DNA of 62,913 nucleotides, filler included, from Globobulimina sp. (GCA_003354225.1; 37 parts of 37 records of this genome joined end to end with filler, not necessarily neighbours in it), one strand, 5' to 3'; shown: positions 2-47,419, numbered from the whole stretch's first letter. Notes: a model not told the origin generated them from the letters alone. Made by a program: numbers and translations.

Positions 2-1486
2 CACAATCATAATTATATATCATCGAACCGTGCTAAAACCCCGCAACTAATCGATGATGAGGATGAAGATGATTTGAAATCGCATCGTAGTTTAAAACAA
101 AACAATAACAAAAATGCAATCAATCACAACAAAAATGGTATGCACATTTAAAACTGATGTATATTGCTAAAGTTTCTCTCTTTTTATTGCTTTATACACT
201 ACAAAATGTGCTAGATTTTTTTACAAACTTTTTTTTGTTTTGTTCCAGGAATAATTATCGACACAACTACCAATCACGGATTTAATTTCAATATAAATCC
301 AATACCAACTCCAACAAACCAACCATCCGAAATCCCATCCATTCCCCATCCAAAACCACCACCTCACCGCAGCGATAAAGTCGAAATAGATGCATCAGAC
401 TCAGACAATGAGACCGAAGTAACACCAGAAATATCACGCAAACCAAGTTAAAAAACCGCATCCGTCAATATTTGTATATTAATATCCTTGCACTTATAAT
501 TATAACTAGTTTCGAGCCCAAATAGGTACAATTCGCTGCGATGGGGAAATTGCGTTCGTTCCCCTTTTAAGCAACGCATCAATACAATAGAGAGAGACCG
601 CAAATTATCTGATTACAGGAACGAATTACATTATTTTAAGCAGACTGAGCAGTCATTAAAAATCAGCGAATGGTTCAATAATAGAAACACAATGGATTTA
701 TTGCAAGAAATCCAAAAATATAAATCGGATTTATTGAACAAAATCGATGCTTTAAACGAGATATCCGATGGGAAACAGTGGTATCCAATGATGCATTTTA
801 ATGATTTAAACAGCAAATTTACGCCCGATATCTATAGATTTGAACCAAAACAATACGACATATATTTGAGAAAATTGAATGAAAATATATTACGCTATCG
901 GGTCAATCAAGAAATGATATTAAACGAAGCGGACCGGAAACGGACAGAACATACAAATGAGTCCATGTGGGAACATTTATTGACGCAATGTGATAATATC
1001 AAGCAAAGCGTGGGTAATATCGATGTGTTTTATCATAAGGGGAGCTATGAAAATAACAGAGATCTGTGGAAGTTCAAGAATAATAAACAAAGACAAGAAT
1101 ATGGCAATGCATTGGTGGACACATTGACTTGGTACAATACGCACGATAATAAGTCATTTAATGATGATAAAATCGGTGTGATTTGTTTTGAGAAAGTGGA
1201 TGATTCGAATGGATCGTTTGGATATAGGGCACAGTTTAAGCGGATGGGAGTGAGTGAATATATGCGGTATAAACAGAGATTTGCGCAAGAGATGAATGAT
1301 TATTATAATGTTGATATAGAGACTAATGAGCATGGTCGCAATCCAGTGTATAACCGAGTGATTAAAATGAGATTTAAGGAGGATAGGAATAGAAATAGGA
1401 AAAGGAAATTGGATGTTTATGATGTTGGACAAGAACCGATGGCAAAGAGACAAAGGAAAGACACACCAATTTATCACAGCAAATAA
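2..1486 (+). CDS. Partial multi-exon hypothetical protein with basic, NLS-like C-terminus
   Basis: GT-AG intron 138-248 keeps frame. A second probable intron runs 474-509 or 474-525. ORF 692-1486 is open back to 506. Joining everything needs one frameshift or read-through of TAA 449-451, so two genes are also possible. Confidence 0.5.
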
Positions 1487-1604
1487 TAAATTAAAAACAG
1501 CGATTATTTGTCATTGCAATGGGAAAAGTAAGCCATGTACAAAATGCGCAATAATGGCATTAACAAAGCAAAGAATGGCACAAAATAGATCCAAGGGAAC
1601 CAAA

Positions 1605-1704
1605 NNNNNNNNNNNNNNNNNNNNNNNNNNNNNNNNNNNNNNNNNNNNTTAATTAATTAANNNNNNNNNNNNNNNNNNNNNNNNNNNNNNNNNNNNNNNN
1701 NNNN
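1605..1704. other. Artificial contig linker N44-TTAATTAATTAA-N44 (first of 36; last at 61212-61311)
   Basis: Identical 100-bp spacer about every 1.7 kb, with stops in all six frames; contig lengths fall monotonically from 1604 to 1602 bp. Confidence 0.99.
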
Positions 1705-1932
1705 TGTCTACAAGTCATGAAATGTTGTAGAATTCTACAAGTTGGGACAACGCCTTTCAGATATTCGGAACACAAACCAAAATATACTTTATAATTATAT
1801 ATATTTACATATGTTATGTATACTTTAGTCTTTAGAATAGGACCTGTTTGAAACATTTGTAATGCCATAGGATTTTAAATTGTTCAAACACGTATATATT
1901 CTAAAGTATTAGAAGTACATCAAATCAGTGAG

Positions 1933-3285
1933 TTATACTATTTTTTTCACTTCAATTTGCTTGTTTTGTGGATTAATTATCAATCCATGATTGAATAATT
2001 CATTATTTCCGTGTTTCTCATTAATATTTGATAACATTTCAAATACGTTTTCCTTCGTTTTGGATGATACATCGTTCAAAACAAATCTGTTATTGTTTTT
2101 GTGAATAGTATCAAATGATAATTTGAATAAATTCTTTTCTGGCAATGTAATGACACTGTTCCGTATCCACTTTAATATCTCATATACCATTTTAATACAT
2201 TTACTGGTAATCACAGGAAACATTTTTTCAATGTCTTGTGTAAATAAAATTTTTGCTTGCTTTATAATCCCTCGTTGATGCAATGCAATAACAACACAAT
2301 GAACCCCACCAAATATACATTGAGTCCAGTACTGAAGTAATTTGTTAACTTTATTTGTTTTCCATGATTGTATGTTACAACATTTTATTTCAATGCGTTT
2401 ATTACCCAAAACCGCATCCATCTCACCTGCTGCTAAAATTTGTATATCTTTAATTTGCAATTTATTCAATGCTCTTATTTCGTTTCTATTCATGCATTTT
2501 TGTGTATAATCCATTGCTGCAAATTCAATGCGTTTATTATTTGATAGAGTTTCTAATGTATGTTCCAATAAAAATCCATACGCACAATTTTTTGTAAACC
2601 ACGGTTCGTCACTGTCTTGATCAAATTCAATAATATTTTCAAGAAAAATATCATTTCCATTTCGATGAACACCAATATTAACACCACATTTATTATATAT
2701 TTTTAAGTGTGTCAATTTAAATAAAACGACGTTTGCTATCTCTCGCAAATTATGACGATATGTTATAAATCGCACGGGTTGCACGGCTGTACATGATTCT
2801 TTATCTTGATTTAATAATATTTTGTATATTTCATAACAAAAAGGATCGATTCTCGTCGTATTCCAATATTGTTTTGCTGGCGTTGCTTGCTTTAAATTGT
2901 AAGTTTGCTGACTCGAATAATGGATTAGTATTTCATTTAAATTAATATTAATTAATGATTGAATACTTTCTAATGTGATGCGCATCGGCTTTATTTTATC
3001 ATTAAATTCTAATAATTTATTTGCTGGATCAGTATGATAATAAATAATATGCATATCTTTTTTTACGTAACAATGCAATCTTTTTTTACGTAACAATCTT
3101 TTTGTATCAAATTGTGAAATAACTGTCCTTTTCTTTTTGTTTGTTGTGTGACTGGTATCACTTTTTGTTTTTGTTTTTTTTGCAAGAAACATTAATTGAT
3201 TTGTATGTTTGCGTTGACAGTGTGTACATTTATATGCATTTTGTTTCATTTTTTTGAGCATCACAGACTTTCCTAAATGACTCAA
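1933..3285 (-). CDS. DXO/Rai1/Dom3Z-family decapping exoribonuclease-like protein
   Basis: Ordered family motifs FITYRHNL, YGFLLE, LAAGEMD, IEIK and KLLQYWTQCIFGGV; start codon uncertain. Confidence 0.8.
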   Translation of the reverse strand: MSHLGKSVMLKKMKQNAYKCTHCQRKHTNQLMFLAKKTKTKSDTSHTTNKKKRTVISQFDTKRLLRKKRLHCYVKKDMHIIYYHTDPANKLLEFNDKIKPMRITLESIQSLININLNEILIHYSSQQTYNLKQATPAKQYWNTTRIDPFCYEIYKILLNQDKESCTAVQPVRFITYRHNLREIANVVLFKLTHLKIYNKCGVNIGVHRNGNDIFLENIIEFDQDSDEPWFTKNCAYGFLLEHTLETLSNNKRIEFAAMDYTQKCMNRNEIRALNKLQIKDIQILAAGEMDAVLGNKRIEIKCCNIQSWKTNKVNKLLQYWTQCIFGGVHCVVIALHQRGIIKQAKILFTQDIEKMFPVITSKCIKMVYEILKWIRNSVITLPEKNLFKLSFDTIHKNNNRFVLNDVSSKTKENVFEMLSNINEKHGNNELFNHGLIINPQNKQIEVKKIV

Positions 3286-3408
3286 AATAATTTCAAATAT
3301 TTCGCCCGNNNNNNNNNNNNNNNNNNNNNNNNNNNNNNNNNNNNNNNNNNNNTTAATTAATTAANNNNNNNNNNNNNNNNNNNNNNNNNNNNNNNNNNNN
3401 NNNNNNNN

Positions 3409-4468
3409 GCTCGCTGATAATTGTCATATAAATATCTACGAATTGAGGTCAAGCCATCACCACTTTGCATTCGCTCCATGTTCAACGCATAAAATTGGTA
3501 TAAACGCGAAGATAATAAATCAGAGGTTCGACGATTCGCCGATACACAAAAATTTATTAAATTATCTAATATTTCTAGACTCGATTCATATGACGACATA
3601 TCATATAATTCCAATGCGATTAATAATTTTAAAAATATATACGTTTCTGGATAGAATTTCCTTTTATTGCGTCTGTCCTTAAGTGGTATTAATGTTATTT
3701 TTATGTCTTTAAATTCTTCCTCGTTATCTTGGCCCTCATTATCATTATCTACGTCCATTGCATTCATTGCATCATTATCAACTTCCATTTTATCCTTATC
3801 CTTATCCTTATTCTCATCCTCATCCTCATCCTCCTTCACAATACCTTTTTTTTTCTCTCTTTTGGCATTAAATAAAATAAAATAAAATAAAATAAATTGT
3901 TAATGGAGTGCAAGGATAAAAAGTACATAAAAAAAAAATAATTTACAAACCTTTCAAGACGTTCTTTTTTTAACTGTTGCTGTTTTTTTTTATTCTCAAT
4001 TTTGGCCAATTTTTCCTTTTCGGCAATAAATGCCATCAAAGTAGCAAATACGTCATTGTTATTTTGATTTAATTTATTCTGTACGTCATGGAGTGATACG
4101 GCCGCCAAATTGGAGATTAATGCTATTTCTTGTTGGGCTAAATCAGGGATAAATGATTGCAATAAATCTTTAAATTCTTGTTTGTAATTTTTTGGAATGA
4201 TTGTATGGAGGATACGACACCATGTGGTATGCGGTAACCTCTTACGGAATCGATTTATATTTCTTGTGCCGCGACCCAATGCCGATAAATCTCCTTCGAC
4301 GCCTTTTTCCAATTTATCCAATGTTTTCAATATTTCAATCCATAAAAGATCTTCTGGTTCAAGTTCATTCATATTTTTTTTAATCTCATTGTCACGCTCT
4401 GACTCCTTCGTATCCTCTTTTTTCTCTTTTTCGTCTGTCTTCACATCAACAACATTCATTGATGACAT
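3409..4468 (-). CDS. RPN3: 26S proteasome lid subunit Rpn3/PSMD3, N-terminal part, 2 exons
   Basis: PETYIFLKLL and NRRTSDLLSSRLYQFY match Rpn3. Intron 3859-3950 (GTTTGT..AAAG) joins LER|EKKKGIVKEDE in frame. Confidence 0.85.
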
Positions 4469-5280
4469 TTAATAGCTGATAGCTCCGAGATAAGATTGCT
4501 GTTACTAGCTACACGCGACGTGTGGCAAAGATGAGATGATTGGTATTTCAGTAACAAAGTTGAAAACTCTGATACATCAAATTTGGTTCGATCCTAAAAC
4601 CATTCTTTCGTCACAAAGATCAATATCATTATCCCTTAATAAAGAAATAAATATCGATATTTTACATAAATATTAAACAATGTACGTAACAAAAATAAAA
4701 ATAAAAATAACATATTGGTTTCAATCACATATTCACATATCACACAGAAACGAAATCTCACAAAGCACGCCACAAAGACAATAATGTTTAACTTAGACAC
4801 AAAGGCAATCAATCACAATATCACATTAATCAATCACAAGTGACAAATAATTACAATATACACATTTAGCTATAATTTAAGTCATGACATTTTATTTATT
4901 TGCATGAATTAAATTACATTGCCCGGGATGAGCCGCGTGGAGGCAGTGTATGTACAAATTCATCCCATGACCCTCTGGTAATCAGTCGCAAGTATTCCGT
5001 CCTTGCGTCTCTNNNNNNNNNNNNNNNNNNNNNNNNNNNNNNNNNNNNNNNNNNNNTTAATTAATTAANNNNNNNNNNNNNNNNNNNNNNNNNNNNNNNN
5101 NNNNNNNNNNNNGATAACATGTATGAGTTGCAAATTTTCAGATATACGACCACTCATGATCGATAGAAAAACCAATAATGATTGAGAAGGGGGCAAAAAG
5201 TCTTTTATATACAATTTTATTCCCACCACCACATATTATATTCACGACAATTTACAACTGACAGTTGATATACAAACAGA

Positions 5281-8746: not shown

Positions 8747-9898
8747 TTAATCATTGTTATCATTTAATTGATTGCCAACTTCTTTAATGGCCATCGCCAT
8801 TCTTCCAATGCCATTTTCTAAACCTTGATTTTGTCCAAAATTAACAATTTTCAATGAGTCGACATTCATTGCCCCATAAATATTTTCAACAGTTTGCAAA
8901 ATTAATTTCTTCATATTCGCATCGCCCATTTTCGAATCAATGTCATATCGATCCTGAATTTTCCTTAACTCCGCATCGTGTTTTAATTGTTGAGTCTTTA
9001 AATTATACTCAATTTTGCTTAAATCCACCGCTTGTTTTTGATGTTGGATTTCATAATTCATTTTACACTCTAATATGGCAGTTTTATTCTTCATTTCAAG
9101 GCTGGTTCTCTTAATCTCCTCCCGTTGTAACAACACTTTTTGTTCTGCTTTTTCTTGATTCAATTTCATTCGACTCCGTTCAATCTGCGCTTCCGTATCT
9201 TTCTCATTGCGCAACTTCGTGATTTTAAACTGAGTCAAAACCCTTTTTTCCTGCAAGTCGTGGTCTGTGTCAATACGTATTTTCTCGGCCATTTGGCGCG
9301 TCGAACTGCGAAAAGGTTGTTGTAAATCATTAAACAATGAGTTACTCAAAATCTTCACCTCCGTAATCTCCACCGTTTCCAACCATATTCCCCATCCACT
9401 TAATATGGCCTGCATGTCGCCGGTGATACGGTCCCTTACTTTCTTCCGTTGCGATATCACTTCATTAATGCTTAAGTTTGCAATTTGATGTCGAACTATT
9501 GACTCCGCCATGGATTTAATATGCATATTTACTTCAGAGTTTGGTTGTAAATCGGTCAAATCACTGATGTTTTTGTATGCTTTCAATGGATACTGCTCCT
9601 TGCGATTGACGACCCAAATGATAAAACCTGATAATTCTACGCCTTGCATCTCTTTCGAGACTTGTTGAGCTACGAAAGTCACTTTATTTAATAAGGAGGG
9701 GAATGTAACCACAGTCTCGTTCCAACCGCGAAATACTGAAATACCAATTCCACATTTTCCTAATTCGCCATCTTTAATCACCAATAACCATTCATTGGGT
9801 TGAGCCGATACAAAACGTGTTTTTAAATGGAAAGCTAAGATTGTCAATAAAATGACTAATACGGTTGTTATGGTAAAAGGGACGTACCACTCTGTCAT
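8747..9898 (-). CDS. SPFH/Band 7 (flotillin-like) membrane protein
   Basis: N-terminal TM, AQPNEWLLVIKDG, WGIWLETVEITEVKI, C-terminal coiled coil; complete 383-aa ORF. Confidence 0.85.
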   Translation of the reverse strand: MTEWYVPFTITTVLVILLTILAFHLKTRFVSAQPNEWLLVIKDGELGKCGIGISVFRGWNETVVTFPSLLNKVTFVAQQVSKEMQGVELSGFIIWVVNRKEQYPLKAYKNISDLTDLQPNSEVNMHIKSMAESIVRHQIANLSINEVISQRKKVRDRITGDMQAILSGWGIWLETVEITEVKILSNSLFNDLQQPFRSSTRQMAEKIRIDTDHDLQEKRVLTQFKITKLRNEKDTEAQIERSRMKLNQEKAEQKVLLQREEIKRTSLEMKNKTAILECKMNYEIQHQKQAVDLSKIEYNLKTQQLKHDAELRKIQDRYDIDSKMGDANMKKLILQTVENIYGAMNVDSLKIVNFGQNQGLENGIGRMAMAIKEVGNQLNDNND

Positions 9899-10224
9899 TG
9901 TTTCAGTCTACGGATCACTAGATTAACTACGAAGTTTTTGCAGTTTTTATTTGCGTTGTTTGCCAATATGTGGTTGCGCATACGCGAGCATGCACCTTGT
10001 ATACGTGCAAGGATAAAAATAGAAAGAGAGTAAAAAAGCAATTTTAGTAACAAAAAAATAACAATATTCAAATCAACAAAATTGCATACATATAAAATAT
10101 ACGAATTGTAAGGCTTTAAATAGTNNNNNNNNNNNNNNNNNNNNNNNNNNNNNNNNNNNNNNNNNNNNTTAATTAATTAANNNNNNNNNNNNNNNNNNNN
10201 NNNNNNNNNNNNNNNNNNNNNNNN

Positions 10225-10405
10225 CCGTCTCGGTTTCGAAATACCATCGGCAAATATATATTAAAAAGAAATGCCAAATGTGTGGCCTGTGGAAAATGCG
10301 CTGAGCTCTGCCCCCATGGTGTTCACATCATGCCGGAAAATCATGCTGCTCCGCACAGACCTGTTGAGCACAAATGTATAGGTCCTGACTGCAAAAAAAC
10401 AGACC
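10225..10405 (+). CDS. Bacterial 4Fe-4S ferredoxin-domain fragment (glutamate-synthase-related protein type), chimeric
   Basis: PSRFRNTIGKY..CVACGKCAELCPHGVH (CxxCxxCxxxCP)..CIGPDC, cut before the second cluster is complete; higher GC than its neighbour. Confidence 0.7.
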
Positions 10406-10422
10406 CCACCCTAATTTAAACC

Positions 10423-11262
10423 ATGTCTGCGTTATCTTCACTTGTTGGGATTATCCTCTTTAATATCATCATCATACTGAGCAATGACGATGAATACGAT
10501 GACCTTGACGCACACTACGAAGGTTGGAATGATCCAATGACACTTGGCTCATTAATGAAATTACGACATCAAAATAGCGGACATTTCCTACATTCGCATG
10601 AAATAAGTTGGGGCTCTGGCTCTCAGCAACAATCCGTCACTGCCTATCCAACTCTTGGTGATGGCAACTCATTATTTCAACTCTACGCAAGAATCGGCGA
10701 CACAAATTTCACGCATGCTTCTGCCATAAAGTGCGGTGAGATTATACGCTTAAAACATGTCAAAACAAGTCGATGGCTACACTCTCATTCAAGTCATCGC
10801 GCGCCGTTATCACATAAACAGGTTCCATGTACCTCCTTACCCCTTATCCCTTATCCTAGCACTCATATTTTGACACATAACACACTGAACAATGGATAGG
10901 AAGTGACATGTTTTGGCGATGAGAATAACAGCGACGAAGCTGATGATTGGAAAGTAATTTGCAATAAAAAAGCATCAAAGAATGCAGAAATAACCAATTG
11001 GTGGAGAAGGGGCGAATCGTTTTCATTGCAACATGTCGTGACTAAACACTATTTATTTACATCTAAAAAATCCGAATTCAATGATAATAACTGCAGAGGA
11101 TGTCCAATCTTGGGACAATTTGAGGTGAGTGCCTCTGAAAAAAAAGTGAAAGGCGCGAGGTGGATTACATCGCATGGCTTTTATTTCCGACCTTTTGATT
11201 TTGAGGATTATCCTGAAAAATATTTAACTGATGACACGGATCAAATAAAAAAGGAGTTATAA
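10423..11262 (+). CDS. SDF2: SDF2-like ER MIR-domain protein, 2 exons
   Basis: Signal peptide, LHSHEISWGSGSQQQSVT, IRLKHVKTSRWLHSH. Intron 10822-10899 gives PLSHKQ|EVTCFG. C-terminal KKEL. Confidence 0.9.
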
Positions 11263-13836: not shown

Positions 13837-13850
13837 TCCTTAAACTAATC

Positions 13851-18746: not shown

Positions 18747-19217
18747 CTAAATAGATGGGGTGATTTTGATGTAGATCAGATCACTTACGAAACCTCAAGA
18801 AAAGGCGTTTTTGCTGGTGGTGATGCAGAAACTGGAGCATCCATTGCTATCGCAGCTGTTGCTGCTGGTCAGGAAGCTGCAATCTCGATTATCCGACAGC
18901 TGAAAGGCGAGGATATGAAAGAAGGGCGGGAGAAAGTTGAAATTCCTCAAGAGGATTTCAATCCAATCCCCAAGGTAGCAGAACTCGTCCCTAGATCTCA
19001 TATGGATAAAATCTCTATGGATCAAAGGAAATCCGGATTTGCAGAAGTTGAGTTGGGATTGAGCGAAGAGGTTGCCAGAGCTGAAGCCAATAAGTGTCTT
19101 GATTGTATGTTATGCTGTGAATGTCTGGAATGTGTTAAGGCATGTGGTGCTGGAGCATTGACACTAGATACTCATCAGGAACAATCAACCGAAGTTGCGT
19201 TAAATGTTGGTTCGATA
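18747..19217 (+). CDS. Bacterial FAD/4Fe-4S oxidoreductase fragment (HdrA-GltD fusion type), chimeric
   Basis: KGVFAGGDA..AIAAVAAGQEAAISI, FAEVELG, EANKCLDCMLCCECLECVKAC; ends at LNVGSI. Confidence 0.85.
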
Positions 19218-19435
19218 CCAGCGTTGCTTGGATTGTCCAAATTTACGCATCCATCACAACCAGTTACGCAACTATGAAATCCATAGCGTACCAAATTACC
19301 CACACTGAAATCACCACCAATATTTTGTAAATAATAAATAATATCACCTTTTAAATGCACTGTAATCTCTTCATATGTAATATCAGCATTAAACACCGAA
19401 ACACACAAAGCTAACGACAATAAACGAGGTAACAT
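19210..19435 (-). CDS. Secreted heme peroxidase (plant/ascorbate-peroxidase superfamily), N-terminal fragment
   Basis: Signal peptide, then LVRYGFHSC..GCDGCVNLDNPSNAGI (distal R-x-x-F-H motif); truncated at the chimeric junction. Confidence 0.75.
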
Positions 19436-19501: not shown

Positions 19502-20347
19502 ATGAGTTCAAGTAAAAAAAGGCCGTTTTCAGAGTATACTGCAGGAGACTTTTATTTATGCGCTGATTGTGATTCAGTTTATCACGGACAACAAGAATTA
19601 TGTGAACATTTAGCAAAACATTCCAATCTCAGACGACAGGTCTTATCCTTGCACCGCGTGCAATTATTGCAATACTTAATAATTTAAATAAACATAGGCA
19701 CGAAAAAGGATATGTCTTCGTAACAAGCAAAAAAAAGATATTTTGGATTATACTAAGAAACCGCAACAATTAATACCAGACAATTTAAGCAACGATACAG
19801 CAGGAAATGGAATGAATGTTTGTAAATTATCACAATTATCAGGCATTGAACAATTGACACAAACAAAAAAAATGAGCGATCACTATTACACATATCACCA
19901 ATTAAAAATGGCAGTGAATACCATTGGAAACACACGACGCAAATCGTCACATAATATAAAAACATCACTGGATATCATTCACGATATTACTGTGTTAAAA
20001 CACGCAGCAAATGTATTACATTTGCAATGTAAAAATAGTCATTTATTTGATAGGATACAATCAAAATTATTAGGCTCCAATTTCAGACAGCCTCCAATTA
20101 AAAATCACCAAAAAATTGTAAAGACAGTGAAAAAAAAGCAAAAACCATTAATTACACAAATAATCGATAAACATAATGATAAACAGGAAATTGATGGTAT
20201 TGTTGAAGAGGAACAGACAATAAATTTTCAATTTGATTCTTCCGATTTTCAACGTTATTTGGATGCAAATAGTGAAATCATTGGGAGATTGCAAGCGATT
20301 CGGAGAGAAAAATCTTTTTTTGGTGCGACTAAAGAAGAGATTGATTT
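19502..20347 (+). CDS. C2H2 zinc-finger protein, 2 exons, 3' partial
   Basis: CADC..HLAKH; intron 19640-19697 joins in frame to ORF 19743. Confidence 0.7.
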
Positions 20348-27826: not shown

Positions 27827-28862
27827 ACACAGAGTCCGAGCATATATTGAAAATCAGCTATATGCTCTTAATGAATCTGCATCAAAACCTAAAATATTAA
27901 AAATAAGAACTATCACACAACAAAAAGAAAAAGAAATTACAAAAGCATTAAATCCACAGATAAAAGAGTTAAAAAAATGGAATGCTGATATGACATATTT
28001 GGCAAACACATTTAAAGATTATTCTGACTCTGATGATGAAAAAAAGCAGAATTATGAATTGGACGGCGAGGTATTATTGCGACAGTATACAAATTGTAGT
28101 TGTTTACTCACAGCACAACAGGCGAGACGCGAGGTCGTTGGCGAATATATAATGCCAATAAATGAAATAAAAAATAGCGTAAAACAAAATATAAAAAAAT
28201 ATAATGCGGAGGTAAATTCATTACAAAATAAATATGATATAATTGATACAAAATATCACACGACAATGAAAAAAAGAATTATGTTACAAGAGCAAATCGG
28301 GCAATTAGTGAAAGAATTAAATATATGCATAAACACAGAAAATGTGACCGGTAAACAAAAGATGCAGACACAAAATGATTTGAATGTATTAAAATTAGAG
28401 AAAAAAACATTTGAAAAGTTATGGCAAACATCAAAATCTTTAACTGCAGGATATCAGAAATTTGTTGAGGACGTTGGAACCGCAGCAAATGAAATAAATA
28501 CATTTTTAAAGACAGAATGGATTTTCATGAACGGAATTGGAGCAAATGGCAAAGCAAAGATGTGTCGAATTGGATAAAATATTTAAATCAAACTGAATGT
28601 GAAAACAAAATAAAATTATCAAATAAAATTGATTTAAATCGAGTGACAGAAAATATTATGGCCCATGGCATTTGTGGGCAGACTTTGGATCAAATTGAGA
28701 AGAATGATTGGTGTGTTCTGGGTGTCCAATTGTTGGCGGATAGGACACAAATTAACAATCGAATACAAAATATGATCAAATTATATCCAAGAACTAGTGG
28801 TACAGAGAGAGAGACGGAGTGCAAAGATGATATTCAAATTCCGCAACAATTTAAATGTCCAA
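27827..28862 (+). CDS. Coiled-coil + SAM-like + U-box protein, partial, frameshift near 28505
   Basis: WSKWQSKDVSNWI (SAM-like) and IPQQFKCP (U-box start); one extra T in the T5 run restores the frame. Confidence 0.6.
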
Positions 28863-32715: not shown

Positions 32716-32724
32716 AGATGTTCG

Positions 32725-34071: not shown

Positions 34072-35674
34072 TTTAATATATAAACATCACACGATAACGG
34101 TTTAATATCAAATAATGCATAACCTTTCAACAGTTCATTCAATATATTTATTACCTTTATCAATGGCTGAAAATTGATCTGTTGTGGAATATTTCTAATG
34201 GTCGCAAATGTCAATACATCCAATCCGCCAATAAATAATCGTTCATCTTCGTTCACAAATGCTGTCCAATAATTTGCGTTGAAAAATATTGCCGATGAAT
34301 TAGTATTTTTTATATCAAGCACAATCCCTTCGGCACCAAATATCGACCAAGCAATGGTGAAATCTAATATGTACAAACAATTATTACTCGATAGTGCAAG
34401 GATAAAAAATATAAAACCATGTACAAAACTGGCAGTGGTTGAAAAGGGGCCACATATTTTTATGGTGGTACTATCAAATAATAACTCTGTCGATACGCCA
34501 TGGAAAAATGTGCGAATATCTGACTCATCCATCATTTCGCCATAACATTCCACGCATTCTCTTAGATATTTGCCCCAATGATAATATTCAGCATGGCGCG
34601 TTTTTAAAACCTCATTGGTTTCGTAGGGACTGGTTTTTCGAAAGGTACTGGAAAATGTGTTACTATGCGCACTAAAGTTACAATAAAACATTAATGCCAT
34701 TATATGATGAATTCGAATCTGTTCTCCCTTTTGTATACCATACATTTTCTCCGCCCATGCACATTCTTCATGGGCGGTATATTCACATTGCAGAGGCGGA
34801 GCATTTTCATCATTCACCCAATTACGTAATTGAATGGTTGCTTTCTCCAAAATATCACAATATTGGGAGAGGGAAAATTGACTCCATTTATTATTTAACA
34901 GTTCAGTCTTAAAATTGATATATTTGGCATAAACGACCCAGTCTCGAATCAAAAAACCCGCATTGCCTTCAACCACTACTTTGCCCCTATCCATTTTATA
35001 TAAAATGTTCCATTGTTTATTGCCATTTTTTTTATAATACGAATGATAAAAGAACCTAAAACCGGCACTATAAATTTTCGATTTTTGTTGTTTTTCAAAT
35101 CGAATACTTTTAAATAATTGATGTAATTTGTTATTATTAAATGTAAGAAATAGATTTGATTCTTGTTCAACACATAAATCGTTATAAATACTCTCTGTTT
35201 CATATTCTTGTTTTTCTATAAATTGACAAAAATTATAAAATAATTTATGCCCAAATTCATGCGCTTTTATGTCATAAAATATTGTATCTAACCAACATTC
35301 GGCATCACCAATCTCAGCTTTTTCTTTCTTTTTTTTCTTTTTTTCTTTTTCTTTTTCTTTTGCTTGTTTTAATAATAATTGATTATTCTCATAAACTGCC
35401 ATCTGATACATTGCAATTTCATTCTCATAATCATATAATGACTCTTTTTTTTCTTCTTTTTCATCCAATTTAAATAGAATGCCTTTATTTTCTTGTGTTG
35501 TAGTCATAAATTTTAAATTATTTGAACTTGATCGTGATTCATTGACTGATCTGTATCGATTTGATGATTCTGTGGCATTCCTTATAATATCACCAATATT
35601 TATTGTTGCTTTGTCCATACATTGCATATCAACTTTCTCTTCGCTCTCTTCTTCAGACTTTATTTGATTAATAT
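34072..35674 (-). CDS. Large protein with C-terminal ADP-ribosyltransferase-like motifs; stopless 66-nt intron
   Basis: FFHGVS, GPFSTT and NEDERLFIGG in ART order; probable intron 34364-34429. Confidence 0.55.
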
Positions 35675-35774: not shown

Positions 35775-36236
35775 CTGAAATTTGACGACATTAAGAAGAC
35801 AAAGGAGGGTCTGTCTATTACTCTACGCAAGAGTAAAACTGATCAGCACAAGTACGGACATGAAGTGGTCATCGCGCGGACTGACGGAGAATTGTGCCCT
35901 TTACAGGCATTTCAAAAATACATGGAACTTCTACCGCATGGAAAATCAGCCAATAATTCTTATGTTTTTGCAACTATGGATAGTGATCGCGCGATGACTA
36001 GAGACTCTACACTGAGAATTTTAAAAAATATGCTTAGGAGAGAAAAAGCACCAGAAGCCGATTCAATTACAATGCATTCATTCAGAATTGGCTGTGCGAC
36101 AACTTTGGTGGAAAATGGCATCGATTTAGTCAACATTCGTCAACTAGGGCGGTGGAGGGGCACAACATCATTTGATCGTTATATTAGGCCTTCTAATGGT
36201 CATAAAAAGCACATCAGCAAAGCTTTAGGATTGTAG
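35775..36236 (+). mobile_element. Tyrosine recombinase C-terminus, DIRS/Ngaro retrotransposon type
   Basis: RKSKTDQ, LCPL, HSFRIG.AT, GRW and RYIR catalytic motifs. Confidence 0.85.
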
Positions 36237-39180: not shown

Positions 39181-39576
39181 CTCGATTTGGATATTAAAAT
39201 TGTTGAATGCGATTTTAATGAAATATTAAACTGCGAAGCTGTGACCGAACACAAATATGATATTTTATGGAATAATGCGAGTTTAATGCATCTATCAAAG
39301 ACCGAGTTTGATAAATTTTTGTATGATATACACGATGTTTGTACAGGAAACACAATATTTGGTTCATTGTTTTACAAAGGAGATGGCAGCAAAGAAAGAT
39401 ATACAGATTTAACATTTGTGCCAGATAGATATTTGAGTGAATATTCGAAAAACGAGTTATCGAGAATTTATACCAAAAATGGATGGAAAATACTGTTGAT
39501 GAGTCCTGCTGCTGATTACAACAGAAAGGGTGATTGGATTCAAATACTGGCTCAACAAACTTCCGATCGGTTTTGA
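39181..39576 (+). CDS. Class I SAM-dependent methyltransferase C-terminal fragment (prokaryote-like)
   Basis: ECDF..YDILWNNASLMHL..YKGDG..RYLSEYS..WI. Confidence 0.65.
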   Translation, partial: LDLDIKIVECDFNEILNCEAVTEHKYDILWNNASLMHLSKTEFDKFLYDIHDVCTGNTIFGSLFYKGDGSKERYTDLTFVPDRYLSEYSKNELSRIYTKNGWKILLMSPAADYNRKGDWIQILAQQTSDRF

Positions 39577-39636
39577 AATTTGAATATCAAATTAAGCCAT
39601 GCCCTGACTTAAGTTTTTTTTTTCTCATTTATACGA

Positions 39637-40783
39637 ATGTCAAACCATAGACACACACAATACAATCGCTCAAACGCATATGGCCACAGCAATAATAACA
39701 ATCATGACATAGATGACATAGATATAACCGAAGGCAACCCGGTCTATGACATCCGGGTCGTAGCTTTTAAGCGACAAATCAAACAATTAAAGGAAAAAAT
39801 AGAACTACAAACAGAATTAAACCGTAAATTAGAAACTGATAAAAATGAGCTTGAATCGCAATTAGCATCGTATAAAAAAAGATGCGTAGATCTTCAGAAA
39901 AACTTAGACGACAAAGATGCACATTTAAATGAAGTCGTCGCCAGTCTCACCATACAACATTCTGTATGTCGCTAGCCACACTGTGCAAGGATACATACAT
40001 AAAAAATATACAAATTAACTATAACATGTACACAGAAAACAATCCCAGTCAACAAAAAAAAGAAAGAAAGGTCAGGTTGGTTTGGATTTGGTACACCAAA
40101 AGCACCCAAGTCCAGCCTTAATACGTTCCTGACACCAAATACAAAGCACAATCATACACCTTCACCCATTCAGAGTCCCTCCATAGACCTCAATCAAGAG
40201 ATAGATTATGACCACGACCAACATGTCTTACCATGTATGACTGCACCCATTGGACCCATTGGATCATCCTTACCCATTACTGGCAGTACACGGCGTCGCC
40301 GGCATGGCTCGGTGCACATTATTGATGGTAGTGGCGATTTTGGTGTGTATGTAGGGACCGGTACGAGTTCACTGATTGGTATGGATCGAAACGAAATGGA
40401 GTTTAAAATAAAAAATTCATCCAGGGACAAACTGCGCAATTACATACGTGACGTATATGCCAAATATAATGTGTTGGATGGCGAAAAAAAGCAATTGTTT
40501 CATGATCTGGTGAAGGCCACACACAATCAGGGCTGGACAGAGAAGCAGGCACTGACTGCGGACAAAGAAGCCAAAACTGCCATTTCCAAAGAGAAAAATG
40601 CCAAAAACCATATAAAATCATTGGAAAAGTCATTGAAAAAAGAAAGGAAGAAAATTGAGAAATACAGGATTACTTTTGAGGATTTCAAAGCGAGTGCAAT
40701 CAAAAAAAGAAAGGACATGTTGCTGAACGACAAGAAGTTGCAGGATATCATTTGTATGAAGGACGAGTTCATTCAAAGAGCGT
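39637..40783 (+). CDS. Coiled-coil protein, 2 exons, 3' partial
   Basis: Intron 39964-40035 joins ORF 39637 in frame with ORF 40237. Confidence 0.7.
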
Positions 40784-40883
40784 NNNNNNNNNNNNNNNNN
40801 NNNNNNNNNNNNNNNNNNNNNNNNNNNTTAATTAATTAANNNNNNNNNNNNNNNNNNNNNNNNNNNNNNNNNNNNNNNNNNNN

Positions 40884-41277
40884 TGTTATCCGGTTTAACA
40901 TCTCGATGTAAAATATTCTTCTCATTATGCAAGAAATCTAATCCACGTAAGACATCTTTCATCACCTTTAATATTTCAACCTCTTTCATTGCTTTTCTGG
41001 TTTTTAAGATATCGATTAACGACCCTTTTTGACAATATTCCATAACAATTAATGTGGAAAAGCCTTCTTCCATCACATCGATAAATTTAACAATGTAGTT
41101 TGAATTACATGCTTTTAATAATTTGATTTCTTGCTGAGATGCTTCAAAATTTGATAATGCTTTTATTGCTACGAATGAACCGTTTGAGAAATCTTTGACT
41201 TTATAAACTCGGCCAAAAGCTCCTCTTCCAATCTCAACTCTGTTTTGTAAGTCATATTTCCCTGTAACAAGCGCCAT
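40884..41277 (-). CDS. Ser/Thr protein kinase (STE-like), N-lobe fragment
   Basis: IGRGAFGRV, VAIK, IVMEYC, ILHRDVKPDN. Confidence 0.92.
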
Positions 41278-41629
41278 TGTTTCCACAATTAAAACCTTAA
41301 AAGGTTGAGTCGAATCAACATTTATCATTGCCTCGGCAATGCAGGTACAGATCCAGATTGTTTTAAAGGTAGTAATGTAAAATGTAACAACAAGCAATAT
41401 GCTGCAATCATAATAACTGCAGTGAGGAACACAGGTTTAAAATAATGTCGTGACTTGTGACATTTTTTTATGTCTACAAAGTACAAACCCACATACAACC
41501 CTGCAATTTTTTTACTAATTTTGTAGATTTTAATGCTTGGAAAAGTTTTTGTAATTAGAATTTGAAAACCGTGCAGCTTTGGGTACATCACTGTCACGTG
41601 GCTGTACACTCGCAATAGTTATTATTAAT

Positions 41630-42486
41630 ATGGAAATATACGCGTCTATGGGTGAATTAGAACGGAGGTTTTTAGACACAGCATCTTCTGATTATGGATT
41701 AGAAGAATCTGATGATTATTTTTCATCTCAATCATCTGATGTACCAAAATTGTGCGCAAGCAAACACGAAAAAACAAAAAAAGAGAATGAAAAACTACGT
41801 AATTGGTTAAAAACAAGACGTACCTTAACAAATACACCAAATAATTTATTATTATCTTGCACAAATGCTGTAATTAACGATGTTTTTGGTGGATTAAATA
41901 ATATTTTACGTTTATTAGTTAACAATGCGAATAATACTCAATTAATGCAAATAAATCAAATAATAAAATCAATAAACGATAAAAATAAAAAAAAATTAAA
42001 ATTAAAAAACAAAGTTATGGATATAGATAAAGAAGAAAAATCTATAGAAACGAAAAATAATTTTAATATTATACCCTCGGAATGCATATCGTATATCACT
42101 TCATTTCTTAACAAAGATGGTGATGCTTTTGAACATTTTAAATTAGTTTCACGAAGAATAAGCATTTGTTGTTTGGAAGAAATGTTAAAATTTAGAATTG
42201 GAATATGCGATATGAATGAATTTATTTTATTTAATACGCATAAAAAAAATCGTTATCGATTTGATGAATTCGAATGCATCAAATATTACCGATACAATCC
42301 AAAGAGGACAGTGCAACATTTACAAGAACAATGGAGTAAACATTATAATATTGATGAAAATAAGCAATTAGTATTTCCTTTGTGTGATAATATTAGAATC
42401 ACACGAAAGAAATATCGAAAATATCGAAATATAATTCGCTCACAACAAAAAATTTTAAATTTCATTGATTTTCGAGAATTTACTAC
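41630..42486 (+). CDS. Hypothetical protein with F-box-like segment, 3' partial
   Basis: FNIIPSECISYITSFL..FKLVSR. Confidence 0.55.
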
Positions 42487-42650
42487 NNNNNNNNNNNNNN
42501 NNNNNNNNNNNNNNNNNNNNNNNNNNNNNNTTAATTAATTAANNNNNNNNNNNNNNNNNNNNNNNNNNNNNNNNNNNNNNNNNNNNAGGTATTTTTGGGT
42601 TTTGTTGGGTGAGTTGTTGTGGTTTAGTATTACTGTGTATAAAAACGGCA

Positions 42651-43178
42651 ATGAAAATAGTAGAAAAGAACAGATTGGAAAGGTTACAACGTGAAAAAAA
42701 GGTGCTTGCAACAGATAAAAATAGAAAGAATGTGAATGATGTATATGTTGAATGGCGTTTGGAAATGCAAAGAGTGCGAAAAAAAAATGCAAATGATTTA
42801 AATGTTGAACGCCGTTTGGAAATGGAAAGAGTGCGGAAAAAAAATGCAAATGTATATGTTGGTGAGGAGCAACACATAGAAAACAAACAAAGTAAACAAG
42901 GAAAGTATGAGGATAATTATAATGATGCATTGGAGGATGAATTGGCAAAATCTGAGCAATTTGAAAGGAAGATATCAAATAATAATAAAGAACAAATTAT
43001 CTCTAAACAACCAACATTATCGTATTCAGCAATGAGTTGTGTAATTTGTCTGGATGTGTTATTGGAGAATGAAGCGACAAAATTGTTTTGTGGGCATAGA
43101 TTTCATACAAATTGTATCGAGGAGTATAATGAAAATAATTCCAACTGTCCATTGTGTAGAAAAACAATCGAATATTAA
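42651..43178 (+). CDS. RING-H2 E3 ligase with internal 57-bp tandem duplication (42729-42862)
   Basis: CVICLD..CGHRFHTNCI..CPLCR; 19-aa unit repeated about 2.3 times. Confidence 0.85.
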   Translation: MKIVEKNRLERLQREKKVLATDKNRKNVNDVYVEWRLEMQRVRKKNANDLNVERRLEMERVRKKNANVYVGEEQHIENKQSKQGKYEDNYNDALEDELAKSEQFERKISNNNKEQIISKQPTLSYSAMSCVICLDVLLENEATKLFCGHRFHTNCIEEYNENNSNCPLCRKTIEY

Positions 43179-43333
43179 CAACATGTACATAATATTTTGA
43201 GTTGTTTCCAACAGGCATTAGATTAGATTTTCATATACAGAAATCGCAAAAACTGTGGCTTAGAAATTTATATATATCACAGCTCAGAGCTTTAATTTTC
43301 TTGTTTAACTTTATCGACATGGTACTCATGATA

Positions 43334-43532
43334 CGTGTTCACACATTTTTGGGTACACCAAGTTTTGCCTATCAAAAAAGCAATATCCAACTCCACTGTG
43401 TTTACATAAAAAATCAGTGACCAAATCAGTATATTTACTGTTTGGCCACTGCTTTTGTATCTAAACACAGTAGAGCTGAGGATTGCTTTTTTGATAGGCA
43501 AAACTTGGTGTACCCAAAAATGTGTTAACACG
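43334..43532. repeat. 199-bp foldback (near-palindromic) element, MITE-like
   Basis: ACACATTTTTGGGTACACCAAGTTTTGCCTATCAAAAAAGCAAT is reverse-complemented exactly on the right arm; imperfect pairing continues to the centre. Confidence 0.9.
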
Positions 43533-43640
43533 AACAAATCCATAAAATGATATTGCTATTTTGATCAGTGTTGAGTGCTCTATTTGAAAATGAACGAAAA
43601 GTGCAAGACTAAACATAGTAGTCGCGAGTCTGTCGTTGAG

Positions 43641-44147
43641 TTAATTACCCACTTCAAAGCCAGGCACCGTGCTGGGCAATACTTTATTTATTTTATCAGC
43701 AATAACAAGCTGTGCTTTTGTCATTTTTCCTAAATATACCATCATTAAGAAATCCTGTAATCGATTTGATATCATTTGTTCAAATTTCGCCGGCGATAAG
43801 TTAGGCACTGAAGACAAGGCCGCACCAATCAACCACCCGACAGATTCATTGCCCTCCACCTCACCATTTATCACCGACTGTACATATTGTTGAACAGTCT
43901 CCAAATTCTGCAATAAACTTTGTAACACACTCTCTAAATGATTCGTGTCATTCATTAACATCGACGGCGAATCCAATGTGTTGCCCTCAGGCGGCGATTC
44001 TATGATCATTTCCAAGCCAATTCTCTCCGATTCAGACGCAAAATAGTTACATATCACTTGTTTAAATCTATAAAATATCGGAAATGGTTTCTCCACTTCT
44101 TGCAATGGTAACAGTTCTTCCTTTTTTTTCTCTTTTTCTTCCTCCAC
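43641..44147 (-). CDS. EIF3F: eIF3 subunit F C-terminal part
   Basis: ESERIGLE, VPNLSPAKFEQM..LQDFLMMVYLGKMTKAQL..KI. Confidence 0.8.
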   Translation of the reverse strand: MEEEKEKKKEELLPLQEVEKPFPIFYRFKQVICNYFASESERIGLEMIIESPPEGNTLDSPSMLMNDTNHLESVLQSLLQNLETVQQYVQSVINGEVEGNESVGWLIGAALSSVPNLSPAKFEQMISNRLQDFLMMVYLGKMTKAQLVIADKINKVLPSTVPGFEVGN

Positions 44148-44343
44148 TGCTGTTTGACTTTCTTTTCCTTTTCATTTTCCTTTTTTTTTNNNNNNNNNNN
44201 NNNNNNNNNNNNNNNNNNNNNNNNNNNNNNNNNTTAATTAATTAANNNNNNNNNNNNNNNNNNNNNNNNNNNNNNNNNNNNNNNNNNNNTTTTCTTGCTT
44301 TAATTTATACATTTTGTAAAAAGTTTATTCAATTAAAAAACAA

Positions 44344-45860
44344 TCAAACCCGACCATTACTTGAGTTTCTATTAATTAGATCAATAGCTATAGGATTAGA
44401 AGGTTGTACCTCATCCAAACTATCCAAATGTACCCACCATAAATAATCCTTTTGTCCAATCTTTACGACTAACTGTGTCTGTCCACTATGCTTATCCACC
44501 CTCTTTATAGTGGCCAATCTCCATTCATTCATATCATACACTTCCGGTGATACATCCGGGTGTTTCATATACCAATATTTAGCCAATCTACATTTAACCG
44601 CTGTATCTTTCAAATCCTTTCCTTTCGTTTTAAATTCTCTCCGATGAATCTGTCGCGTCGATATCGAACCAGCACAACAAAAGCGAATTTGTTGGCATTT
44701 TGCTGAAATATCACACCATAAATCCCATTTAGACTGCCAACCAATATAATGTAATTTCACTTTATTTTTATTCCTATCAATATCAACAATCACCGCTGTT
44801 GCAAATCGACCAACATTGTCACGGTGATCAATATGATCATCAATGCATAAATTAGCAAACCCAATGGCATTAAAACACATTTCATCATTGAAAAATGTAT
44901 CATTTTCCTCCTCAATCTCTACAATGTCAAAACATCCCTCATCAATCTCAATATTATCGCCATCTTGTTTTTGCTCCTCAGATTCTGATATTTGTGCACG
45001 AAATTTATGTTTTCTCATTGATTTACGATTTACTTTTGCTTTTTTATTTTGTTGAATGTCTGTAAAATATTTTAAATATTGCTTCTCTCGTTTCATAGTA
45101 ACGTCACGTATACTTTTTTCCGGTTTGATTTTGCAGAGTAAATAGTTTTGAATTTCAATCACTTTCCTCAAGGATAATATGCCTGAAAATTGCACCAATT
45201 TAATAAAAAACATTGGTACCATCAATGTAAAACGGATATGCGGCGCCAAATTATTCATCATATCTTCAAACATATTGATAAATTTTTTGTCATTCTCTTG
45301 TTCTGTATCTTTCTCCTCATTATGCTCCATATCCATATCCTGATTATCTTCCTCTTCCTCACCATCATCATCAATGATAATGTCACCATTATTCCTGCGA
45401 TTTTTTTTGGAATGTTTAATAAAAATATCATGCTGTTTAATAATCATTTTTTCCCAGTTTTTAATATTATTTTTCTGTGAACTGCACCAAAAATTTGTGT
45501 CTCCTGTGGATAAACCAATGGCTTGCGACAATATGGATTCTCGTTTATCATTTTTCTTAATTTCTTCATAAATCTGTTTGGGAACACTCAAATGTGCATC
45601 GATTAGTAATTTTATTTTATGTGGGGTCTTATTATTAAATTTCTGTTTAGTTTTATACAGTGAATATCCAATACATTTATGCCATATTAGTTCCTCTGAT
45701 AAATATACGTTATTGGATTGGATAATTCTGCCTAAAATATCGATATTTAATGCATATAATTTATGCAAATCTTGAAAGATAATTTGTGTGCAATTATTCA
45801 CCATATAATTCTCGTCAATTAAGGCCTGTAAATATTGTTCTACACCAAAACAATTGTTGT
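44344..45860 (-). CDS. BTB/BACK-type protein with C-terminal Tudor/chromo-barrel-like domain, 5' partial
   Basis: SEELIWHKCI and HIRFTLM (BACK-like); IDHRD..KLHYIGWQSKWDLW. Confidence 0.6.
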
Positions 45861-46158
45861 ATTTATTTTGAATTTCATAGATGATGTGATACNNNNNNNN
45901 NNNNNNNNNNNNNNNNNNNNNNNNNNNNNNNNNNNNTTAATTAATTAANNNNNNNNNNNNNNNNNNNNNNNNNNNNNNNNNNNNNNNNNNNNGAGAGGTT
46001 GGATGTTCGGGAGTTGGTGGGAAAAAGTATCGTAGAATTGGATTCTTGTTTCATTAATAATTCAACTTCTCAACGCCTAAACTTCCGAACCTCTCATTGG
46101 CTCTCAACCTCTCAAACCTCTGACTTTAATGCATTTCTTTCAATGACTGTGATTTAAT

Positions 46159-46941
46159 TTAATTTGATTGTATTTCTGGTTTCTCCATAGTTTCTGATTC
46201 TGTACTTTGTTTTGGATCTTTCTCCAATATTACTCCAGCTGTTAAACATATGTAAGTCATAATCAGTAGAACGTGAAATGCAGCAATAGACCAAAACATT
46301 GTGATGATCGCTGCAACGGTAACAACAAACATAATAATATACCAAATCTGTGGGCCAATTTTTTTGTTTCTGAAAATTATTAATATTGCTTCGATGAACA
46401 AATAGATTAAAGGCACTGCCATTTCCAATATTTGCAGATTAAAACTGAGAGCGCGATTCGAGTCAGTTATCCATGTCATCGATACGATAGCCACAAAGAT
46501 TACATTGACGAGTATGATTGCAATCACATTTCTGCTGACATACAATGACCCCCTTCGTGCCAATAGGAATATGAATCCAAAATTTGCCGAAATTTGACTG
46601 TCAATCATAATGCAGAAAATACGGCATTTGTCTATAGAAGCTTAGGTGTTGTATAAAATGAAAACAGTAACAGACCTGAATGTCAATACGATTGTCCATA
46701 CAATAACATATCCAATGGATGGACTTGTCTTGTTGTCTTGATGTGGGAGGAATTGATGCACTGCACCACCAATGAAGTAAGCCATTCCTGCAAATATACA
46801 AAGCAAGGAGGCAGAGAAATGCGGGTCTTGTATGTCAAATTTTGTCCACTTTGATCTTCTGTAAGATTGCAATGTGAACCCACAAAATAACGTGATTACT
46901 CCAAGGACATAATCTGTTATCATCGCAGCAGTTGATGCCAT
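46159..46941 (-). pseudogene. Multi-pass membrane protein, frameshifted near 46640
   Basis: Two hydrophobic ORFs in different frames; TDYVLG and GGAVHQF motifs. Confidence 0.45.
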
Positions 46942-47419
46942 TCTCTGTATTACGTTTTGAATATCGTTGTCTTATAGAATTAATTTGTGTGTTTTGCCGC
47001 TTTCCTTTGACTAATTATAGATAATTTACGAAATTTGCAGTAGTTCATAATTGTAGATATATCAGCTGTCTATGTTGCACTTCGATGAATGTTACGACAA
47101 ACGCAATCATTGATTGGTTGTCTGAATGTAACTGCAATCTCTGCTGTAATGGCTTATGACGCCCAAGTGAAAATATTAAATTGGTCCTTGCACACAAAAC
47201 GCACACGTCTTCCAATTGTTGCAGTTTATCATTCGTATCAGTTTTATCCTCCTTAACCAATGGCTTTGCTATCAATGATTTAATGCGTTGCACTTGTTCT
47301 GTAAAAAAAAAATATTGTAAAAAAAAAATATATATTTTTTGTTGTAAAAAAAAAATATTGTATATTTATTTTATGAAACAAAATAACCAGATATATAGAA
47401 CCACCACTCACTAGTAGCC

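Follow-up and report, generated by a model that had tools for sequence, protein, structure and literature searches.

A sharply defined 11-nucleotide word recurring in short introns of unrelated genes of Globobulimina sp.

Introduction

The branch-site word TACTAAC of budding yeast and the 12-nt branch/acceptor motif of Trichomonas and Giardia are present in nearly all introns of these organisms at a fixed distance from the acceptor, and the branch site TCCTTRAC of U12-type introns is placed about 10-20 nt upstream of the acceptor. Donor-like words lying away from the real donor can also act through pairing with a small nuclear RNA (snRNA), as in the U11 small nuclear ribonucleoprotein-binding splicing enhancer (USSE). 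Introners are mobile DNA that creates introns, the 15-nt chromosome-breakage sequence (Cbs) of Tetrahymena and E-Cbs of Euplotes mark the sites of breakage and telomere addition, and the motifs of intron-mediated enhancement in plants are short and degenerate. Here we report on the 11-mer TATCCTTGCAC, which recurs, for the most part within short introns of unrelated genes, in a DNA stretch of 62,913 nt from the foraminifer Globobulimina sp. (GCA_003354225.1), hereafter referred to as the window. Its recurrence is real and departs strongly from chance, and the word seems to lack a published description. We interpret it tentatively, at rather less than even confidence, as a selectively maintained cis-element of about one quarter of the short spliceosomal introns, namely an auxiliary signal that would be read on the pre-mRNA by base pairing.

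The word resembles each of the above systems in part. With TACTAAC and the Trichomonas/Giardia motif it shares exact recurrence in introns of unrelated genes, presumably since each loss disables a gene; unlike them, it is present in 5 of 20 curated introns, at any position, and beside ordinary WTAAY-like branch candidates (recognized by eye). A universal signal of the branch-site type was thus rejected on the grounds of this fraction and of the variable distance to the acceptor. Like the U12-type and USSE words, it is a sharply conserved intronic sequence containing TATCCTT, but it does not stand at the intron start, shows no tandem arrangement, is antisense in one case, and occupies about one quarter of the introns as against less than 1%. 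Introners likewise recur in introns of unrelated genes in both orientations, whereas here only 11 nt are common to the copies, terminal repeats and target duplications are lacking, and at least two of the host introns are old. The ciliate Cbs is also a short, nearly invariant, orientation-free non-coding word, whereas the present one lies within intact, continuous genes with no telomeric contig end. As in plant intron-mediated enhancement, the copies are intronic and mostly near the 5' end of the gene, but the word is exact and one copy lies at least 1.2 kb into its gene.

Few large eukaryotic groups have genomes as little explored as those of the foraminifera, and what is known of their gene structure comes only from scattered contigs. 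In the literature, the word and its complement appeared only in unrelated primers, and no description of a conserved intron-internal motif for foraminifera was found in the foraminiferal and rhizarian intron literature as far as listings and excerpts show; the excerpted texts of PMC6783311 and PMC3079666 mention only canonical introns. The statement of the original prediction, which had been made from the sequence alone, that no description of the word was known agrees with the literature covered. By kind, the word would be a conserved intronic cis-element, with a small chance of being a categorically new class. If the fraction of 5/20 held genome-wide, there would be thousands of copies, forming a class of intron signals or intragenic DNA sites without a described counterpart. 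Such a class would bear on the recognition of very short introns with poor donors, and would show what replaces the minor spliceosome where it is lacking and whether compact protist genomes house signals in introns.

Occurrence of the word in the window

The window consists of 37 separate contigs of 1602-1604 nt each, sorted by length and joined by N44-TTAATTAATTAA-N44 spacers, with 59,313 of its 62,913 positions being real bases and a GC content of about 0.27-0.39 in 2-kb steps. Because the contigs are concatenated, statistics presuming one contiguous locus are inapplicable; contigs are numbered below by their order in the window.

As had been predicted, six exact copies of the word were found, spread one each over six of the 37 contigs, at 483..493 (+), 3908..3918 (-), 10005..10015 (-), 19644..19654 (+), 34394..34404 (-), and 39983..39993 (-). 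Dinucleotide-preserving shuffles (n = 100) gave a mean of 0.04 copies, none of the 100 attaining six, and a second-order Markov model gave an expectation of 0.026 copies (Poisson P = 4e-13, with 54,793 distinct 11-mers in the comparison). The earlier estimate of about 0.02 copies, and with it the claim of an occurrence far above chance, therefore held against a Markov background within the window. Among the over-represented words, TATCCTTGCAC alone was dispersed across many contigs, the remaining ones being trinucleotide or 21-nt tandem repeats or, apparently, words of codon usage. The recurrent 11-mer TTATTATTTGA, found in seven contigs, was taken as a codon-usage word from its coding-looking contexts and preferred Leu-Leu-Phe-Asp codons (by eye; e.g., ELLFD in contig 21).

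The word family is remarkably sharp, with the exact copies in excess and the variants at chance level, i.e., 1 one-mismatch match in the window as compared with about 0.9 expected and 18 two-mismatch matches as compared with about 14.5. Two near-copies had been listed in addition to the exact ones; both do exist, but in classes that are at chance level. The one-mismatch copy TATCCTAGCAC (10852..10862, +) gains some weight because it lies, in sense orientation, inside a candidate intron (10822-10899) whose gene is SDF2-like, with a MIR domain, and it probably belongs to the family. The two-mismatch copy GGTCCTTGCAC (47183..47193, +) is unsupported as a member, its class being at chance level and its putative intron (47153-47206) being an in-frame stretch of an open reading frame. 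A candidate 92-nt intron of contig 23 (38518-38609) was noticed to contain another two-mismatch variant, TATTCATGCAC, in antisense orientation, as well as ACATCCTTGAG in sense orientation, which is at chance level for the window. It had also been pointed out that no exact copy lies in coding sequence; this is correct as a fact but uninformative as evidence, because only 0.03 copies would be expected there.

Host introns of the exact copies

Two of the predicted host introns were confirmed by spliced homologues. In contig 12, the copy at 19644..19654 lies in sense orientation within the first intron of a small zinc-finger-like gene, a 58-nt GT-AG intron at 19640..19697 (+) with the donor GTCTTA and the junction ...RRQ/ARKR... 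(slash marking the splice site). The spliced homologue P0051 (96% identical) has the sequence HSNLRRQARKRIC, i.e., HSNLRRQ/ARKRIC across the junction, and this junction excludes an alternative frame-compatible 40-nt intron with which the word would be coding. In contig 24, the copy at 39983..39993 (-) lies within the 72-nt GT-AG first intron, 39964..40035 (+) with the donor GTATGT, of a gene for a coiled-coil protein. The spliced homologues P0036, P0037, and P0039 read ...SLT.QHS/KP..KKKERSGWFGFG, and deletion of 39964-40035 (24 codons including 2 stops) restores the alignment. Since the word is on the minus strand and the homologue-verified host gene on the plus strand, this copy is truly antisense, and the antisense orientation claimed for it was thereby borne out. 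The intron hosting it was also noticed to have GT...AG ends on the opposite strand (39962-40031, -), within 2-4 nt of the former ends, with the usual T-rich tract preceding the word on that strand.

The copy of contig 21 (34394..34404, -) lies in sense orientation, at least 1.24 kb into its gene, within a 66-nt in-frame, stop-free part of a 533-codon open frame. The corresponding GT-AG intron (34364..34429, -; donor GTTTTG, after ...STTA) is well supported, in line with what had been proposed, by two homologues whose similarity breaks off or fades at precisely this site: P0034 departs from the contig 21 protein exactly past STTAG, and P0033 carries an unconserved 22-residue insert at the intron site between strongly conserved flanks. 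A Pfam search of contig 21 gave no domain usable for testing the intron. The word-bearing part of the intron and the upstream exon form a 28-nt inverted repeat (34381-34408 / 34457-34484, 79% complementary); since its mismatches fall on the core of the word, its AT-rich ends probably match by coincidence.

In contig 3, the sense copy at 3908..3918 (-) belongs to a PSMD3/Rpn3-like gene and is placed in the first of its introns that is visible. Frames of 210 and 163 codons are joinable there only via an AT-rich GT-AG intron, for which frame logic gives 92 nt at 3859..3950 (-) with the donor GTTTGT and with boundaries possibly shifted by 4 nt; the word lies in all listed solutions. The downstream exon matches TPR_PSMD3_N (Pfam, E = 1.6e-13), and the intron predicted here thus stands on reading-frame logic together with the domain in that exon.

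Similarly, in contig 1 the word (483..493, +, sense) lies inside every listed frame-consistent intron solution. The candidate boundaries given by frame logic are those of a 63-nt GT-AG intron at 447..509 (+) with the donor GTTAAA, which is the shortest and most AT-rich (0.73) and the sole short one of the frame-consistent solutions listed, connects stop-free segments of 78 and 326 aa, and has the word beginning 36 nt past its first base and ending 16 nt short of the acceptor. The earlier placement of this copy in a probable intron stands, but not the start assigned to that intron at 474, a donor excluded because a stop codon at 449-451 precedes it.

The sixth copy (10005..10015, -) lies in contig 6, in the same orientation as an SPFH gene and 107 nt upstream of its ATG at 9898, matching the roughly 110 bp estimated previously; the 20-nt stretch before the word holds 18 pyrimidines. 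A 5'-UTR intron with the donor GTATAT near 10103 and an acceptor following ACAAG at 9997 is a candidate host of this copy. The SPFH/band-7 protein (8750-9898, -) has as its closest named relatives transcriptome proteins of the foraminifer Ammonia (61% and 54% identical) and is 75-98% identical to EukProt entries, on which basis the organism was treated as a foraminifer or a close relative. Over this contig (8521-10124), reads of the runs X6, X7, and X8, presumed to be RNA and about 6% diverged (hence from a relative), showed no joints and left the word uncovered, which carries no weight either way for transcription or splicing there. In a contig of the sequencing run X2, listed under another sample and study and colinear with 9503-10124, the word is unchanged and the adjacent T-run is one base longer, while the rest of the 217 nt upstream of the SPFH ATG differs from the window by three substitutions and a 9-nt deletion.

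That the word might have arisen by chance, adapter contamination, or an assembly artefact, as the small sample and the presence of the 11-mer in unrelated PCR primers of 44 papers could suggest, has a negligible probability in view of the Poisson P value, of the copies within frame-preserving introns, and of the X2 contig having the word at the same place. The adapters seen in the runs are ordinary Illumina ones unrelated to the word, which is hence distinct from an adapter. In addition, among 119 metagenome contigs from all kinds of habitats (745 kb), picked as an outside control for containing one 15-mer TTTTTATCCTTGCAC (the word with four T in front), none had a second copy and none resembled the DNA of the window organism.

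Intron specificity and donor sites

A set of 20 candidate introns was curated, totalling 1,393 nt or 2.3% of the 59,313 nt, on the basis of GT-AG ends, a length of 47-111 nt, AT-richness, and the connection of stop-free segments of the main coding strand; spliced homologues verify two of them. Candidates opposite the main frame, a possible frameshift at 28564-28643 (contig 17), and weak candidates in contigs 19, 20, and 30 were left out, as was 39570-39650, where the two frames are two genes because homologues start at the downstream Met.

The exact word was present in 5 of the 20 introns and the one-mismatch copy in a sixth (10822-10899). Five of the six exact copies were thus located in short GT-AG introns, for which the binomial P was 4e-8 (at least 5 of 6 in 2.3% of the sequence); relative to the non-coding DNA alone (25-35% of the window), P was still 8e-6 to 4e-5.

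A pyrimidine was found at donor position +3 (GTT/GTC) in 11 of the 20 candidate introns, and the donor consensus would be unusually weak if the candidate boundaries hold. Such GTY donors were found in all five introns with a sense copy, the near-copy included, as compared with 6 of the 15 others (Fisher P = 0.038, a value that depends partly on our own boundary calls), and the intron with the antisense copy has the consensus donor GTATGT.

Surroundings and conservation of the word

An alignment of seven loci over 131 nt contained ten invariant columns, all within the word, and identity elsewhere was at background level. The word has no fixed position in the intron: in the five introns it starts 4, 19, 25, 32, and 36 nt from the donor (GTCTTA, GTATGT, GTTTTG, GTTTGT, and GTTAAA, respectively) and ends, in ascending order, 16, 30, 42, 43, and 49 nt from the acceptor. 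The donor distances are accordingly short and variable, as had been noted, although they range from 4 to 36 nt rather than the 5-33 nt given earlier. Word-bearing introns are of ordinary length (58-92 nt vs. 47-111 nt for the other curated introns). RNA folding of eight stretches gave no shared or unusually stable structure (z-scores of -0.7 to +1.6), which is harmless to recognition by pairing, as no fold is needed for it. As regards the gene 5' end, four of the six exact copies are within -110 to +550 of an ATG, and another lies 1.24 kb or more into its gene.

Conservation of the word was suggested by P0055, a protein called on the genomic contig of a relative and 76% identical to the first exon of the contig 12 gene. 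This protein reads through the orthologous intron as ...KRQ/VIIIIINHPCTYFW..., beginning VIIIIINHPCT, and about 33 codons further on the second exon follows in a shifted frame (RGKEFVFE for ARKRICxRN). HPCT is the one-frame translation of xATCCTTGCAC (xAT CCT TGC ACx), and any of the 22 four-residue peptides encodable by the 10-mer core would be met in 0.7% of random AT-rich 102-nt read-throughs; because of this peptide, (C)ATCCTTGCAC is very probably present, in sense orientation, in the orthologous intron. The word has thus probably been kept in the intron of the relative, with C or T as its first base, i.e., as (C/T)ATCCTTGCAC. In the orthologous intron the word would lie about 22 nt from the donor vs. 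5 nt in the window, and the intron measures about 100 nt vs. 58 nt, so only the word seems to have been kept between the two; its different offset suggests selection over recent copying. In contrast, no word-compatible peptide was found in the introns of P0033 and P0034 that are paralogous or orthologous to that of contig 21, which fits a signal present in only some introns.

These data bear on a selfish or insertional origin, by which the word would be the surviving or recognized core of a tiny mobile or templated insertion (introner-like, or a nuclease or recombinase site) arriving in either orientation and tolerated where it is spliced out. Such an origin would account for the occurrence of both orientations among introns whose genes are unrelated and for the one copy that is non-genic, and would suit both the double-stranded GT...AG character of the intron around the antisense copy (39962-40031, -, vs. 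39964-40035, +) and the tyrosine-recombinase domain encoded in the window (35775-36233), though the latter is unlinked to the word. It is nevertheless quite improbable, considering that only 10-11 columns are conserved in the 7 loci × 131 nt, that a search of six regions found the copies flanked by no family of direct or inverted repeats in any of them, that word-bearing introns are no longer than others, and that two host introns are at positions common to homologues; moreover, copies of recent origin would be expected to have flanks in common, and neutral copies of greater age to have lost their exactness. The earlier suggestion of a footprint left by an intron-generating element consequently failed, since the shared sequence amounts to 10-11 nt without terminal repeats or target duplications and two of the intron positions recur in distant homologues. 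Specifically, an introner or another mobile intron-generating element was rejected because a shared body was lacking in the seven aligned loci and a shared family of terminal inverted repeats or target-site duplications in six of six regions. For two of the five host introns, a recent gain was rejected because the positions are common to P0033/P0034 (contig 21) and P0055 (contig 12), and the word accordingly sits in old introns there. An origin from a tRNA 3' end or a short interspersed element, a retroelement primer-binding site, a terminal inverted repeat, a decoy acceptor (pyrimidine tract plus CAC), and a guide for a small nucleolar RNA were also considered and discarded, no such feature being common to all copies.

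Comparison with U12-type introns and chromosome-breakage signals

The word includes TATCCTT and resembles the branch-site consensus TCCTTRAC, and it had therefore been connected with U12-type splicing. It might then be a transformed donor or branch site of the minor spliceosome, as in lineages with expanded minor introns. Its sharp conservation is also like that of U12 signals, for which the excerpted text of PMC3584512 gives two hallmarks, a donor extended from the first intron bases and a branch site at a short distance from the acceptor. The word, however, lies 4-36 nt inside the intron and never at its start, the donors (GTT/GTC/GTA) share no common extension, and the extended donor /[AG]TATCCTT at the first intron bases was absent from all five introns. 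As a branch site, the word would carry one base more than the consensus, and its end lies at a variable distance of 16-49 nt from the acceptor; one copy is, furthermore, antisense. Rfam gave no match over the whole window at the gathering threshold, so that no snRNA was found, which has little weight for 59 kb, and the sole match on 9850-10124 with E up to 10 was a meaningless coronavirus-UTR. As far as the excerpted survey of PMC11347168 goes, no minor-spliceosome snRNA genes were identified in Rhizaria, and only 2.1% of the introns in one foraminifer are "minor-like." U12-type membership is thus, in our view, refuted, and a transformed minor-spliceosome site is very improbable; of the splicing element put forward originally, the U12 form is unsupported, and a splicing-related RNA signal of another kind is our best, though tentative, reading.

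The analogy drawn earlier to ciliate chromosome-breakage sequences likewise fell, because all copies are internal to contigs, in or beside intact genes, and no telomeric repeats were found at any of the 74 contig ends.

Proposed recognition of the word

In the reading that we tentatively prefer, the word would be paired on the pre-mRNA by a trans-acting RNA of the splicing machinery, as an auxiliary signal aiding or controlling the removal of introns with a weak donor (GTY instead of GTR). The profile of exactness is typical of base-pairing signals whose loss disables the host gene and untypical of transcription-factor sites. If the copy numbers hold genome-wide, so many copies could seemingly stay exact only where the loss of any one of them severely impairs a gene, in the manner of yeast branch sites or U12 signals. 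It is mainly the restriction to introns and the association with weak donors that led us to favour recognition as RNA over recognition as DNA.

The segment of U6 snRNA that pairs with the 5' end of U4 (stem II) later becomes one side of the U6 internal stem-loop. The candidate partner of the word is this U6 segment, which takes part in U4/U6 stem II and supplies the internal stem-loop with its 3' side; the word would be antisense to it, i.e., would resemble the 5' end of U4, and the U6 complement under pairing would read GUGCAAGGAU(A/G). An intron with either strand of the U4/U6 duplex could in principle interact with the U4/U6 pair, and the antisense copy would thereby be accounted for. We infer all four parts of this proposal, namely action as RNA, reading by pairing, U6 as the partner, and compensation for weak donors. 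Two antisense-U6 oligonucleotides, a human primer (10.1101/2021.09.30.462508) and a Capsicum probe (PMC11434723), share CATCCTTGCGC in the excerpts of their sources. Compared with these oligonucleotides, from which the host's own U6 may differ, the word is equal at 9 of 11 positions, with a transition at each of the other two; the first of these would still permit a G-U pair, and the first base C suggested by P0055 would equal the oligonucleotides there.

Several points weigh against this interpretation. The sample comprises six exact copies, all within the window, and the intron boundaries outside contigs 12 and 24 are our own calls. The likeness to U6 is a borderline lead rather than a result, since a match by chance has a probability of about 0.05 for at least nine identities with transitions only (over about 3,000 snRNA positions, a number of our choosing) and about 0.4 for any 9/11 match. 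Pairing with that U6 segment would compete with structures that the spliceosome needs, so that a favourable geometry is not evident. Four of the five intronic copies are sense, a bias that is not significant (P = 0.19), and the antisense copy in a homologue-verified intron means that a strictly sense RNA signal needs an extra assumption. The copy upstream of the SPFH gene is at most in a candidate intron. Taken with this upstream copy, the verified antisense one speaks for double-stranded DNA recognition or for an insertional origin. Finally, in the 20 nt 5' of the word, read in its own orientation, 13-18 pyrimidines were found in five of seven copies, including the antisense (13 T of 20) and upstream ones; this tract tracks the orientation of the word even in the antisense copy and fits a composite site at the DNA level at least equally well.

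A DNA-level site, consisting of the word and the pyrimidine-rich 5' tract and bound by a highly sequence-specific double-strand DNA-binding factor, is accordingly the main rival because the antisense copy is real, although we regard it as somewhat unlikely; this is the part that survived of the protein-binding or genome-processing signal envisaged at first. The binding factor could be one of general regulation or of chromatin, an intragenic enhancer factor, a polymerase road-block aiding co-transcriptional splicing, or an origin-type factor, and a very compact genome could house the site only in introns and short upstream spacers. Both orientations, the location of the SPFH copy upstream of its gene, the flank following the orientation of the word and not that of the gene, and the proximity of four of the six exact copies to a start codon all agree with such a site, as do tiny intergenic spacers. 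On the other hand, introns make up about 7-9% of the non-coding DNA and yet hold five of the six copies. The contig 21 copy, at least 1.24 kb into its gene, is truly at a larger distance, since residue 15 in the window aligns with residue 206 of P0033. Six identical 11-mers without degenerate variants above chance would also be unusual for protein-DNA recognition.

Intergenic spacers are very compact, as seen in contig 24, where the stop of the upstream gene (frame 39181-39573) is separated from the next start codon on the same strand, at 39637, by 63 nt (39574-39636); this start codon is fixed because homologues begin at the same Met.

Recognition of the word on the pre-mRNA could be extended to a third, lineage-specific mode of intron recognition in foraminifera. 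In such a mode, a large class of introns with GTY donors would carry a word like the 5' end of U4 that pairs with U4/U6 stem II or with a dedicated U1/U11-like snRNA, thereby recruiting or unlocking the spliceosome in cis, on either strand since the target would be a duplex. We consider this extension unlikely at present.

Other features of the window

The tyrosine-recombinase (Phage_integrase) domain at 35775-36233 (E = 2.5e-8) is encoded in a GC-richer contig (0.42), which could be a Crypton-like element or a contaminant, and is without any link to the word. Bacterial-looking open frames, recognized by eye, were found at the 5' ends of contigs 7 and 12 (10225-10416 and 18747-19274), each immediately preceding AT-rich eukaryotic genes; Pfam identifies one as a 4Fe-4S dicluster fragment, and the other encodes a 176-aa oxidoreductase-like product without a Pfam match. 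Gene transfer or chimerism of the contigs could explain them. At the end of contig 28 (47421-47595), a tandem array of the 21-nt unit TCATTGCCCTAAACTATCCTG was observed, comprising 4.2 copies with 98% identity within a looser 67-nt periodicity, and the unit includes the telomere-like heptamer CCCTAAA.

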